Translations under genes and position numbers: made by a program
In this document: positions 5,207-9,113 of the stretch, one piece after another
Layout: every line of letters begins with the position of its first letter
Position numbering within the stretch: position 1 is the stretch's first letter
The notes under the pieces: model-generated
What the model was told of the DNA's origin: nothing
What the model saw: only the letters and a program-made list of their open reading frames with translations
Database searches by the model: none
Source of the DNA: a bacterium
Lineage (GTDB): Bacteria > UBA8248 > JACPRG01 > G963555815
Direction of reading: 5' to 3'
Assembly: GCA_965261595.1 (NCBI GenBank)
Contig: CBDHDG010000007.1
Location: 416,001-480,000 of the forward strand
Length of the DNA: 64,000 nt

Positions 5207-6109
5207 CGGTTGCTGTCTAACGAAGAGTTAACCTCCCAGTATTGAGATGGTGAGGGTTCAATACCTCAGAGTGTTAAATCACATACTCCGCTGACCTGCC
5301 CCCAAGAACGAGACCACCTGCTACGTTAGACACGGGACCCTTTGAAGTCCACTCCGGGGAACCGGCGCCAGGGCTTGGGATCTTGGGAATCTGGTCTCCG
5401 GCGCAGGCGGCCGGTAGGCCAAGGCGCTGTGAGGCCGTCGCTGGTTGTACGCCCCCTCCACCTCTCCACCAGCACCTGGGCTTCCTTCAGCGTCTCAAAC
5501 ACCTCCACGTTCAGGAGCTCATCCCTCAGCTTCCCGTTGAAACGCTCCACATATCCGTTCTCCCAGGGACTCCCTGGCTCGATGTACAACGTCCTCACGC
5601 CAACCGCCTTGAGCCAGTCCCTGACCACCCTGGCCGTGAACTCCGACCCGTTATCTGACCGGAGGTATTCAGGGACTCCCCGGCCCACAAACAGCTCTGC
5701 CAACCGCTCCAGCACATCTTGGTGATTCATCTGCCTTGGGGGCATCAATGGATAAACATTCAAAGGCTGTACGCATCCAAAATGGTCAACAGCCGGAAAG
5801 CTCTCCCTTCTTGGGTACACTCATGCATGAAGGCATAGCTCCAGACATGGTTCCGATGAGTTGGTCTCAGGCGCACGCAGGACCCGTCATGGAGCCACAG
5901 TCTCCTTCGTTTCGGCTGTCTGGACGGGACCTTCAGCCCCTCCTGTCTCCAAAGCCTTTCCACTCGCTTGGGGTTCACCTTCCACCCCTCTAAGGCGAAG
6001 CATGGCCGTGATCCTCCGGTACCCGTATCGATGGGGTGGACGCCCCCTCCCGACGGCATCACGCTGTGGCAAGGTGGTGTCGTGTTCAACCCCTGAAGGA
6101 GGAGGAACC

Positions 6110-7114
6110 ATGGAACAAGTGAGCATCATCGGCATCGATTTGGCGAAACACGGCTTTCAACTGCACGGCGCGCGGCCGGACGGTTCGGTTGCATTCCGCA
6201 AGAAGCTGACCAGGGAGAAAGTGCTGGACTTTCTGGCCTCGCACCCGCGCTGTCTGGTAGCGATGGAGGCATGTGCGAGCGCGCACTATTGGGGCCATGA
6301 GATCGGCAAGCTCGGCCATGAGGTGAAGCTCATGCCGCCGGTCTATGTGAAACCCTTCGTCAAGCGTCACAAGAACGACGCCGCGGATGCGGAGGCCATC
6401 TGCGAGGCGGCCTCTCGCCCGACCATGCGCTTTGTGGCCGTGAAGACGGAGGGCCAGCAGGCCCACGGGATGCTGTTCCGCACGCGCGATTTGCTGGTGC
6501 GCCAGCGCACGCAGCCCATCAACGCGCTCCGGGGCCACTTGGCGGAGTTCGGGGTCATCGCTCCGCAGGGACCGGCTTATGTCGGCCGGCTGGCGTTGGC
6601 CCTTGCAGAGCCGGGCTCGGGGCTGCCCGAGGCGGTCCGCGAGCTGGGCGGTGTTCTGCTCGATCAGATTGCCGGCCTGAACGAGAAGATTCGGGAGTTG
6701 GACAAGCAACTCCGCACGAGTGCGCGCCAGGACGAAGAGACGAGGCGCCTGATGACCATCCCGGGGATCGGGTCGATCAGTGCGATGGCTATCCAGGCCT
6801 TCGCGCCGCCGATGGAGAGCTTCCGGCGCGGCCGTGACTTCTCGGCCTGGCTCGGGCTTGTCCCGCGGCAGAACTCCACCGGAGGCAAGCCGCGGCTGGG
6901 CAAGATATCGAAGACGGGCCAGCGCGATGTCAGGCGGCTGTTGATCACGGGCGCGATGGTGGTGGTGCGTTGGGCGGCCCGGCGCGGTGCGCCGGCAGGC
7001 TCATGGCTGGCTCGGATGCTGGTCGCGGTGGCGCTGCCGAATCGAATGGCGCGGACTGCCTGGGCGTTGATGACGAAGAAAGCGGTCTATCGGGAGCCGG
7101 CGCCGGCCGTCTGA
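6110..7114 (+). CDS. IS1111-type DEDD transposase/recombinase
   Basis: GIDLAK, MEAC, KNDAADA (DEDD); IPGIG; QNSTGGK; GGAGG RBS; apparent short in-frame deletion near C-terminus. Confidence 0.92.
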   Translation: MEQVSIIGIDLAKHGFQLHGARPDGSVAFRKKLTREKVLDFLASHPRCLVAMEACASAHYWGHEIGKLGHEVKLMPPVYVKPFVKRHKNDAADAEAICEAASRPTMRFVAVKTEGQQAHGMLFRTRDLLVRQRTQPINALRGHLAEFGVIAPQGPAYVGRLALALAEPGSGLPEAVRELGGVLLDQIAGLNEKIRELDKQLRTSARQDEETRRLMTIPGIGSISAMAIQAFAPPMESFRRGRDFSAWLGLVPRQNSTGGKPRLGKISKTGQRDVRRLLITGAMVVVRWAARRGAPAGSWLARMLVAVALPNRMARTAWALMTKKAVYREPAPAV

Positions 7115-7185
7115 GCGACAGGCGCGCGGATGACGTCGGGAATGTGAGCAGGTCGGAGGACGGGTAAGGGACAACGGTCAACGCG

Positions 7186-7326
7186 ACGGGATCGGGAAAA
7201 CCAGGGTATGGCCAAGAGCCCTCGAGCTCGCCGTGCCGATTTGGACCTGGTCCGCGCATCTCCATACGGGCCCGCAGCGTGTGACCCGCCGCATCAGAAG
7301 GCCGGATACACGACTGCACCTGACCA
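7186..7326 (+). ncRNA. Putative seekRNA/bridge RNA of the IS1111 element (boundaries approximate)
   Basis: Two internal loops: GTATGGCC (7206-7213) and CCGTGCCG (7231-7238) resemble the target; CTCCAT (7260-7265) and ATACACGA (7306-7313) match the donor circle junction. Confidence 0.8.
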
Positions 7327-7928
7327 CATTGCTCCAAACTGTCCGAAGAAAACGCTTGCATTCACGGGGGCGTCCATACACGGCTATACTGACTGGCCAA
7401 CTCCAGCATCCGGATCACCAGTTGTGCCTCTTCCTTGGGGAATCTGTCGGACTCTTCGCTGGGTGGATCTGGCCTGTCCCAACACGCGGCAGGCCCGACG
7501 CTCACAGACTCGCTCAGGCCCGAACCGCTCTCTGACCCATACCACGGATCCTCTCCGCTTCGCCGGCGCCTGGAAGTTTCCCGAGGAGACTTCCTTCAAA
7601 ATCTGGTTGTCCAGCGACAGGTCCGCCACCAGCTTCTTCAGCCGGCCATTCTCCTTGTCCAGCGACTTCAGACGCTTGGCCTGATCCATCCTCAGACCCC
7701 CGTACTCCTTCCTCCACCGGTAGTCGGTCTGCTCGGTTACCCCGACCGGCTTGCACACCTGGACCACCGTCTTCCCCTGGGACTGGGCCACTTCCGCCTC
7801 TCGCAGCTTGATGACGATCTGTTCCGCTGTAAACCGCTTCCTGGCCAGCCTTCCCCTCCTTCCGAAAATCCAGGAATACTCCTTTATCAACTGGACTCGT
7901 TTGAAGGGGGCAGCGACTGTCTTCGATG

Positions 7929-8879
7929 TTAAGCCACTATCGCACTGGGCTGCCATGGTTGCCCGGTTCGAACCATGGCATTGAGGATGACGAGCAACTT
8001 TCGCATGCATGCTACCAGGGCGACCTTCGGAGATTTTCCAGCTGACCTAAGGCGCTGGTAAAAACGGCGAATCACCACGTTCCTTCGCGTCGCCACCAAG
8101 GCCGCCAACTACAGGGCGCGACGGACTGTCGACCGACCTCCTCAAACACTTCGGCGACCCCGCAGGCTCCCACTGTCTCGATTGATGGGAGCTACTCCCA
8201 CCAGGCTGGCGACCTCCTTTCGGCAAAGGTGCCCCAACTCGGGAAGCTCAGCTATGAGGGTTCGGGAGACCACCTGGCCGATGCCCGGAACCGATCGCAG
8301 CAAATCTTCCTTCTCCCGCCAAATGGGACTGTTGCGGATGATTGTGGTCATTTGCACGTCCAGGTCCGCAAGGGCCTTCTGCAACCAATTGATGTGCGAC
8401 CGGACGCTCGCCCGAAGGGCCCTGTCCTGGGTCCGGCTCAGGCGGTTTTTCTCCGCTGTGATCATCCCGCCTAGCTGGCGCCGTCGGGCAATCAGCTCGG
8501 CCAGCAGACGGCTTAATGCATCGGTCACCGTCCGAACGGCCGGCTTCACCGCCTCGCCAAATCGTGCAATGACTGCGGCGTCAATGCGGTCCGTCTTGGC
8601 CAACCGACCCGTCGCCCGGGCAAAGTCCCGAATCTGCCGAGGATTCACCACCGCTACCGGAAGACCTGCGTTCGACAACGTGGCAGCAGCAAATACTTCC
8701 ACCTTCCCCGTGGCCTCCAAAACCACAACCCCCACAGGCAGGCTCTTGAGCCGGCCCATCAGGTCCTCCAGACCCGCTAGGTCATGACCGAAAGACCAGA
8801 CCTCTCCACAGGGCAACACGTGTACATCCAGACGACTTTTGCAGACATCAATTCCCACGTAGACTGGCTCAGACTTCAT
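7929..8879 (-). pseudogene. IS110 DEDD recombinase with two in-frame nonsense codons
   Basis: GIDVCK, LEATG, KTDRIDA, SVPGIG, RDSG; frame continues through TGA (8142) and a TAG to [18 protein letters not shown]. Confidence 0.9.
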
Positions 8880-8884
8880 CTCCC

Positions 8885-9015
8885 AAACCCTTCCTTTTAC
8901 ATTCGGGCTCACCATGGCCCAGGCGACTGTTCGGGTTGCGGAGACACAAGAGCGGGGAGCCCAGCTGCCCCACGGTCTCAACCGACCCAGGTCACGACGG
9001 TCTCCCGCCCCCTTC
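8885..9015 (-). ncRNA. Putative bridge RNA of the IS110 element (boundaries approximate)
   Basis: Target-loop guides TGACCT and GGGGCAG; donor-loop guides ACAGTCGC and GTAAAAG; each pair flanks a hairpin. Confidence 0.85.
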
Positions 9016-9113
9016 TCATCCCCACAGACTTCAAGGACCTAGATACCGAAGACAGCCTACCCCTTCCTACCAACTCAGAAACAAGATAAAAGGTCAGGGT
9101 AGCTTTATTCACA

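Follow-up and report, generated by a model that had tools for sequence, protein, structure and literature searches.

Two IS110-family insertions in one IS3-family element, with predicted guide RNAs that match a repeat tip and a transposase motif

The window analyzed here is a 64,000-nucleotide stretch of a bacterial contig (CBDHDG010000007.1, positions 416,001 to 480,000 of the forward strand, assembly GCA_965261595.1). Near its beginning lies an IS3-family insertion sequence (IS) that is interrupted by two different elements of the IS110 family, which we call A and B. The question raised by this locus is whether A and B were led into the IS3 element by guide RNAs that recognize conserved features of it, or whether they came to lie there by accident, by loose targeting, or by an error of assembly. 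An original prediction on this DNA had proposed the first, with one insert directed to the tip of the terminal inverted repeat and the other to a transposase motif. In our judgment two separate RNA-guided insertions struck this one IS3-family element, which has decayed since, and we give this reading a probability of roughly 0.85.

Architecture of the nested locus

The features of the three elements are as follows, in window positions.

5292..9096, minus strand: decayed IS3-family element, host of both inserts (Pfam, NCBIfam NF033516, and DNA identity to a Roseomonas IS3 element, L001)
5292..6030, 7383..7913 and 9093..9096, minus strand: the IS3 element's own pieces, the remainder outside A and B
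5292..5312, plus strand: IS3 left inverted repeat, beginning TGACCTGCCCCC (repeat alignment)
7892..7913, minus strand: right IS3 inverted repeat, inner portion, with the core copy AG at its end (7912-7913)
9093..9096: tip of the IS3 right repeat, GTCA, after the second core copy at 9091-9092
6031..7380, plus strand: element A, IS1111-type member of the IS110 family, 1350 bp (ends set by full-length plasmid matches; compared with 11 relatives)
6110..7114, plus strand: transposase open reading frame (ORF) of A, 334 residues, open (Pfam, NF033542, alignment of relatives)
6037..6047, plus strand: left subterminal inverted repeat of A, 11 bp, TGGACGCCCCC, with its partner at 7366..7376; kept in relatives
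7914..9090, minus strand: element B, IS110-type, 1177 bp, core CT in its own orientation (junction and family comparison)
7929..8879, minus strand: transposase gene of B, 316 codons, 96% identical over 316 residues to that of an intact relative, P0001

The host has the features of its family, with an HTH_Tnp_1 domain in OrfA, HTH_21 and rve domains in OrfB, and termini of the form TG...CA. Pfam places rve and rve_3 at 5329..5820, HTH_21 at 5763..6089 and HTH_Tnp_1 at 7387..7851 of the IS3 pieces, and the DNA is 65-72% identical to the Roseomonas element. Besides the insertion junction, orfB changes frame at least five times (at about 7450, 5990, 5775, 5745 and 5455), so that the IS3 element would be a pseudogene even without A and B. 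A target-site duplication was not found around it, CCGC at 5288-5291 standing against GGGT at 9097-9100; one of the two flanks may have been rearranged after the insertion. The original prediction places the element in the IS407 group of IS3, for which a duplication of 4 bp is characteristic.

Element A is bracketed by copies of a CG core at 6029-6030 and 7381-7382, and its ends coincide with the start and stop of full-length matches, 64-69% identical in DNA, to alphaproteobacterial IS110-family elements. The alignment to the Roseomonas IS3 element stops at 6030 and continues past A. Excision of A with one CG (1352 bp) leaves the minus-strand codons CAG TAT AGC CGA TAC GGG TAC CGG, which encode QYSRYGYRR; orfB is in frame across this junction (QYSR before it, YGYRRI after it) and colinear with QYGRYGYRR of the intact Roseomonas element. 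Element B is bracketed by plus-strand AG, that is, CT in its own orientation, at 7912-7913 and 9091-9092. Once it is excised with one AG, the sequence reads ...GGGGGCAGGTCA, which complements the left repeat tip exactly, and the right inverted repeat, now split into 7892..7913 and 9093..9096, is joined again. The coordinates originally predicted for A and B, and the two 2-bp cores, are thus correct by junction analysis. The further claim that removing both inserts restores orfB and the terminal repeat exactly holds for the repeat tip and for the reading frame at the junction, but not for orfB as a whole, given its other frame changes.

These junctions also bear on the assembly. In a metagenome-assembled contig the nesting could come from a chimeric join of repeats, and the closest relatives of B are indeed from metagenome sources, where short contigs are common. 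However, both pairs of junctions are reciprocal and exact, the 2-bp cores are duplicated, and the IS3 element is colinear across each insert. Since a misjoin would not be expected to yield two matched junctions per element, we regard an assembly artefact as so improbable as to be nearly negligible.

Both inserts carry recognizable IS110-family transposases. That of A scores 1.6e-14 for PF01548 and 1.5e-22 for PF02371 and reaches 297.5 bits with NCBIfam model NF033542 ("IS110 family RNA-guided transposase", cut-off 140). Seven residues that are present in 10 of its 11 relatives are missing from it (the eleventh relative, L084, is out of frame there). The gene of B scores 7.7e-22 for PF01548 and 2.1e-08 for PF02371; its intact relative P0001 reaches 208.7 bits with NF033542, which the B insert also matches. 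Two in-frame stops interrupt the gene of B: TGA at 8142-8144 in place of the W of P0001, and TAG at 8109-8111 in place of its Y. Matches to the transposase of B include P0001, P0003 and P0025, with identities of 97%, 96% and 92%. The C-terminal motif G--P----S/TG described for the IS110 family (Siddiquee et al. 2024, PMC11187229) is present in A, as GLVPRQNSTG, and also in B. Neither insert has a second copy within the 64-kb window.

The ends of A and B assign them to different subgroups, in line with the layouts described for IS110 and IS1111 elements (PMC11187229; available sections of Durrant et al. 2024, PMC11208160). The left end of A measures 79 bp and its right end 266 bp, the long non-coding region lying downstream of the transposase gene as in IS1111. 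Elements of the IS1111 subgroup extend 7 (or 6) bp to the left and 3 bp to the right beyond their subterminal repeats (PMC11187229). In A these extensions are 6 bp and 4 bp, with the 2-bp core counted once (a total of 12, versus the published 10); the split of 6/4 rather than 7 (or 6)/3 depends on how the core is assigned. Element B has a left end of 211 bp and a right end of 15 bp, with the long non-coding region upstream of the transposase gene, which is the IS110 layout. In B, positions 34-46 of the left end (9045-9057) can pair with the right end (7916-7928) over 13 nucleotides if G:T is allowed, possibly a subterminal repeat in an element of the IS110 subgroup, whose members have short repeats of this kind or none.

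Predicted guides and their targets

The guide segments were placed by covariation with the flanks and ends of relatives, and are predicted as follows.

8887..9025, minus strand: predicted bridge-RNA region of B, a two-loop structure (RNAalifold on 37 family members)
8989..8994, minus strand: left target guide of B, UGACCU (the homologous guide equals the left flank of relatives)
8965..8971, minus strand: right target guide of B, GGGGCAG, pairing with CT-GCCCC
8923..8930, minus strand: left donor guide of B, ACAGUCGC, equal to the right end of B plus the first core base; conserved in the family
8893..8899, minus strand: right donor guide of B, UAAAAGG, pairing with C-CT-TTTA at the left junction
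7205..7214, plus strand: T segment of the A guide, GGUAUGGCCA, which covaries with the right flanks of relatives and is placed by the consensus fold in an internal loop
7231..7238, plus strand: B segment of the A guide, CCGUGCCG, in the same sense as the left target plus core
7306..7313, plus strand: donor guide of A, AUACACGA, equal to the right end, the CG core and the first left-end base; covaries with the ends and core of relatives

For element B, a scan of a genome collection with P0001 yielded 385 stretches encoding a relative; 80 loci were kept, none more than 60% identical, and their left ends can be aligned with that of B. The consensus fold, based on 37 of 58 distinct left ends, has 24 pairs, of which 14 are compensatory, and contains two internal loops, in each of which a small hairpin stands between a pair of guides. 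In the relatives, the sequence at the position of UGACCU is that of their own left flank, and the sequence at the position of GGGGCAG is complementary to their own right flank. Both flanks were available for 66 loci (61 distinct), and contiguous runs were compared with cross-paired controls. Over the distinct loci the right target guide matches its own flank with a median run of 7 (cross-paired mean 2.97) and the left with a median run of 6 (cross-paired mean 2.76); B itself has runs of 7 and 6, respectively. Both donor guides fit the ends of B itself and covary with those of relatives; the right one follows the start of the left end, which is TTTA in B and TGTA in relatives that carry (U/C)(A/G)CAAGG.

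The two target guides of B spell TGAC-CT-GCCCC, nucleotides 1-11 of the IS3 repeat, with 13 of 13 positions paired. They occupy RNA positions 97-102 (left) and then 120-126 (right), so that the bottom-strand match comes 5' and the top-strand match 3'. On the two strands of the window together (127,980 positions) this 11-nucleotide target has one other exact site, the left IS3 repeat at 5292-5302, which is a perfect and unoccupied target. The same 11-mer is found at the ends of the IS3 relatives L001, L095 (both ends) and L103, and in L003. A 12-nucleotide match elsewhere in the B RNA (positions 76-87, one wobble) was considered as a guide and rejected; it lies within the outer stem of the consensus fold and is therefore read as stem.

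Two observations concern this target in other IS3 elements. On the Bradyrhizobium barranii plasmid of L003 an A-like insert (2502-3871) interrupts an IS3-type element whose own tip, TGACCTGCCCC (2280-2290), equals the B target and lies 221 bp from the insert. The window also holds a truncated second IS407-like IS3 element (55224-56146), 76-83% identical to the first, whose tip, TGACCCACCCCC, departs from the B target at the core and which has no insert.

For element A, full-length matches of 64-69% DNA identity were present in 989 plasmid records, mostly alphaproteobacterial, from which 13 were fetched and 11 analyzed; L086 and L090 were left out of the table as their right end was not found. 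The T segment stands directly after a conserved ..GAAAACCAG and complements the right flank of its own element, with exact runs of 7-9 nucleotides in 8 of the 11 relatives. The B segment lies 20-30 nucleotides downstream and has the sequence of the left flank with the core added, matching in runs of 5-9 nucleotides in 9 of the 11. Runs were used since scoring of the T segments in a fixed register was upset by alignment offsets of 1-2 nucleotides. In the consensus fold of the family (32 pairs, 14 compensatory) a single internal loop holds the T and B segments with a small hairpin between them, and a second stem has the donor guides around it. The T segment precedes the B segment, so the top-strand match is 5' of the bottom-strand match, the order of IS1111. 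The left flank of the excluded L086 (..CCGTATGTG) was tried as an IS3 site and rejected as chance, its translation being without IS3 OrfB.

Against their own uninterrupted site the guides of A agree at 13 of 18 positions exactly and at 16 of 18 with wobble. Across the 127,970 positions of the window, 13 exact agreements occur at 14 positions and 16 with wobble at one. When the guides were scored on the homologous site of 11 other plasmid IS3 elements, 63-68% identical in DNA to that of the window, the exact register was the best within 12 nucleotides to either side in all 11 (11-14 of 18 exact, with 14 in L095 and L098, and 15-16 with wobble); over the analyzed loci at least 13 exact agreements occur at 167 of 1,085,956 positions. 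Each of the 11 codes for YGRYGYR with R, K or M as the next residue and I or V after it, and this orfB site is conserved across IS407-like IS3 elements. Since the register is best in all 11, the guides of A appear tuned to a site shared within this IS3 group and not to the window copy in particular.

The imperfect fit allows another explanation, namely that A inserted off target, its preferred site being another repeated sequence to which the orfB site is merely similar. Of its 18 guide positions 5 disagree with the site, the exact score of the site is equalled at 14 other window positions, and the T segment, with exact runs of 7-9 nucleotides in 8 of 11 relatives, reaches 3 in A. On the other hand, the register is best in all of the other IS3 relatives, and the guide-perfect sequence, read in the orfB frame, is Y-G-R-H-G, where the consensus has YGRYG. 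Three of the five differences are compatible with G:U pairing, and all four internal ones are GC-to-AT changes in the DNA, as expected of decay in a dead IS3 element. We therefore consider loose targeting of A rather unlikely; the site may be near-cognate, or site or guide may have changed after insertion.

A more general alternative is that the nesting arose by chance in an IS-rich dumping ground, without aim at any IS3 feature. The window is dense in insertion sequences, with five copies of another IS3-family element, an IS1595-like element, an IS21 IstB gene and the second IS3 fragment, and all three nested elements are dead. Yet the B target is matched at every position with its sole other exact site in the other IS3 repeat, the A site is among the top 15 of the window's positions, and in the families of both inserts the matches of guides to their own flanks exceed shuffled pairings. 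In addition, IS110-family insertion is known to be guide-directed (PMC11187229; available sections of PMC11208160). Chance nesting is accordingly very improbable.

RNA-guided targeting of the IS3 element by both inserts is thus supported by the covariation-placed guides, and so is the division of targets that had been predicted, B lying at nucleotides 1-11 of the IS3 repeat and A at the site coding for YGRYGYRR. The claim that both subgroups are involved likewise agrees with the data: A has the long right end, the 11-bp subterminal repeat and the order top then bottom, and B the long left end and the order bottom then top.

How might the two insertions have proceeded? By the steps published for the family, each element would excise as a circle, and its DEDD recombinase would bind a structured RNA derived from the long non-coding end of that element. 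This RNA would pair through one loop with the joined element ends (the donor) and through the other with both strands of a short target around the 2-bp core, and strand exchange at the core would leave the element between two core copies. Element B, with its RNA upstream of the transposase gene, would be guided to TGAC-CT-GCCCC. As this target is fully contained in nucleotides 1-11 of the IS3 repeat, every IS that ends in the same tip would be a target at whatever location, and the landing site of B would be independent of the position of its host. Element A, with its RNA downstream of the transposase gene, would be guided to the codons (Y)(G/S)R and YG, with the junction between them, before YRRI, where the HTH_21 domain of OrfB starts. 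Either insertion should disable the IS3 element, A by splitting the transposase gene and B by cutting the repeat tip from the repeat. The guide RNAs of A and B would presumably have been made and bound by their recombinases, and a circle intermediate is likewise presumed, as is any benefit or cost; the suggestion in the original prediction that the IS3 element offered a neutral landing site and was inactivated in the process may hold in this sense.

Relatives of the inserts and the weight of the evidence

Where the relatives of the two inserts reside is a separate matter. Four of the 11 A relatives interrupt transposase genes, as judged by Pfam on their flanks: L003 and L092 lie inside the 3' end of an IS3-type orfB (the L003 insert 13 codons before the stop), L088 splits an IS30-type gene (HTH_38 to the left, rve to the right), and L084 lies inside an IS5-like DUF4096 ORF. 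Three more (L002, L093 and L094) are at most 60 bp from a transposase ORF of IS256, IS630 or HTH_Tnp_1 type; L085, L087, L089 and L091 neither interrupt such an ORF nor lie within 60 bp of one. This count of 7 of 11 is uncorrected for the IS density of plasmids, and three of the 13 fetched loci had been picked for IS3-like flanks (L084, which is among the seven, L085, which is not, and L086, which was dropped).

Some of these loci show further peculiarities. L087, L093 and L094, from Sinorhizobium, Rhizobium and Agrobacterium plasmids, have a common target, ..(T/G)(A/G)AGCG to the left of the insertion point and TCCGGTGA(A/G)GC.. to its right, which looks like a short repeat, and the neighbors of the three inserts differ (RepC, an IS630-type gene and an HTH_Tnp_1 ORF). 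The idea that this target (..GAGCG, then TCCGGTGAGC..) is an IS66 repeat was unsupported by Pfam on the flanks. In L088, from a Leisingera plasmid, the right flank at 2869-2940 is a partial duplicate of the right end of the A-like element itself.

A second IS407-like IS3 element hit twice was found on plasmid pACRY01 of Acidiphilium cryptum JF-5 (NC_009467.1; our stretch L105 covers 13000-19000). It carries two A-like IS1111-type inserts, at 2301-3617 and 3736-5106 of the reverse complement of L105, annotated merely as IS110 family transposases. The first (1317 bp, 15-bp subterminal repeats) splits orfA in a YYRWR motif, and the second (1371 bp) is placed at orfA codons 4/5. Compared with the transposase of A, theirs show 37% and 43% identity, and in each insert one guide segment is a perfect match to the flank (8 and 9 nucleotides), the other segments being partial. 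The arrangement resembles that of the window in that one IS407-like IS3 element holds two IS110-family inserts; it differs in that both are A-like and both lie in orfA. A doubly hit element in an unrelated plasmid suggests that RNA-guided pile-ups of this kind recur, and makes a quantitative survey of IS-on-IS insertion worthwhile.

On this basis we put forward, as a tentative suggestion that falls short of even odds, that the IS1111-type clade of A is a standing hyperparasite of insertion sequences. Its guides would have been redirected time and again to conserved coding motifs and repeat tips in IS3 and other families, and one IS3 copy would in this way accumulate several of these elements and be killed by them. 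If this were to hold after correction for IS density, the clade of A would be a natural RNA-guided brake on IS load.

The clade of B is different in that it is not generally resident in insertion sequences. Apart from the three loci given below, its distinct-guide members for which 500 bp or more was available on each side lie between ordinary genes, and the Reyranella copies adjoin hairpins that resemble repetitive extragenic palindromes (REP). This neighbor count covers 150 of the 153 ORFs of at least 125 residues, the three left out being L082 3720-4268 (minus), L083 2279-2680 (plus) and L083 2265-2672 (minus). A DNA search with B in plasmids returned just four records, each covering 8-11% of the query.

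Several results count against two guided insertions into one IS3 element. Three of 32 distinct-guide loci of the B clade (L022, L057 and L064) adjoin a transposase-type ORF, and tblastn with the Roseomonas IS3 proteins found an IS3 element near none of the 80 B-family loci at E≤1e-5 (L058 gave a weak match, 5.6e-05); this query missed IS3-type ORFs that Pfam found in the flanks of the A family and hence undercounts distant IS3 relatives. No homologue with the same guides was seen, the best relative with DNA context being 60% identical for B and 69% identical in DNA for A. In the plasmid records an A-like end joined to an IS407-like IS3 element at the site of A was not found, and junction queries 5650..6450 and 7000..7760 gave no record covering at least 80% of either. 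The fit of A to its own site, with a longest exact run of 3 nucleotides per segment and with 3 wobbles and 2 mismatches in 18 positions, is weaker than that of most relatives. Rfam returned no match at gathering score on the whole window, and on 5000..9400 at E≤10 it returned five, all far under their cut-offs and of unrelated families. Finally, the IS3 element, A and B are all defective, which makes the locus a fossil of three dead elements.

What the locus offers in return is an example in which, from sequence alone, guides can be recognized for members of both IS110 subgroups and assigned to their targets. For guide design, the A site would represent a natural insertion with 3 of 18 guide positions paired as G:U or G:T.

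Neighboring features and comparison with known systems

The remainder of the window is rich in repeats. Five near-identical copies (97-100% over shared 300-nucleotide blocks) of another IS3-family element lie at 660-2000, 10854-12170, 23221-24540, 45389-46700 and 46612-47930, two of them adjacent at 45.4-47.9 kb. The element encodes an OrfB of 305 residues with HTH_21 and rve domains, in which the motif GYRKVWARL is no A target. At 9154-10009, 58 bp to the right of the decayed IS3 element, is an IS1595-like transposase sequence with a zinc ribbon and an ISXO2-like DDE domain, apparently divided between two ORFs. Inverted repeats of 599 nucleotides (26263-26861 and 44036-44634, 98% complementary) surround about 17 kb in a layout that resembles a composite transposon; genes within this span include those for a CHAT-TPR protein, an aldehyde ferredoxin oxidoreductase and a molybdopterin dehydrogenase. 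An ORF of 1561 residues (50276-54961) with 9-10 tandem repeats of about 354 nucleotides (70-87% identical) and a glycine run near the N terminus probably encodes a surface repeat protein. There are also a SIR2_2 - NB-ARC - TPR protein (12223-14802) and a TPR - CHAT protein (27232-29634). Such architectures are often tied to defence or programmed cell death.

How does the locus compare with known systems? IS1383 is said to insert into the inverted repeats of IS1384, and IS4321 and IS5075 reportedly enter the terminal repeats of Tn21-family transposons. Like B, these are elements of the IS110/IS1111 family aimed at the terminal repeat of another mobile element. They differ from it in their hosts, IS1384 in one case and Tn3-family transposons in the other, and IS4321 and IS5075 are of the IS1111 type, whereas B is of the IS110 type with a transposase of 316 residues. 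The CT core of B is also that of IS621.

Element B further resembles IS621, as described in the available sections of Durrant et al. (2024, PMC11208160), in having a two-loop RNA in its left end with left and right guides for target and donor, left guides in the sense of the top strand, and a core that is read by each guide; since no Rfam model matched, this likeness rests on the alignment made here. According to the same sections IS621 resides in REP-like chromosomal sites, whereas the guides of B spell the tip of an IS3 repeat.

The closest precedent for aim at an IS3 element is ISEc21, an IS110-family element whose natural target is formed by conserved codons of IS3-family transposases (the DDE codons) and whose upstream RNA was shown experimentally to be necessary and reprogrammable (Siddiquee et al. 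2024, PMC11187229). In IS1111-type elements the top-strand match comes first in the guide RNA, and in IS110-type elements the order is reversed (PMC11187229). ISEc21 is like B in having the bottom-strand match before the top-strand match, and like A in aiming at a conserved coding stretch of an IS3 transposase (PMC11187229). Here, by contrast, the element directed to a coding site, A, is of the IS1111 type and its site, within an IS407-like IS3 element, comprises the YGRYGYRRI codons where HTH_21 starts, an assignment made by sequence analysis. Our literature search, which stopped short of the supplements of the key papers, ISfinder and TnCentral, found no description of the YGRYGYRRI site, of the IS3 repeat tip as a target, or of repeated double hits of IS3 elements. 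In summary, RNA-guided targeting of one insertion sequence by others is well supported at this locus but is not new, the habit having been published for the IS110 family; to the DDE codons known as the target of ISEc21 the present elements would add two classes of IS3 target, the repeat tip and the YGRYGYRRI codons.

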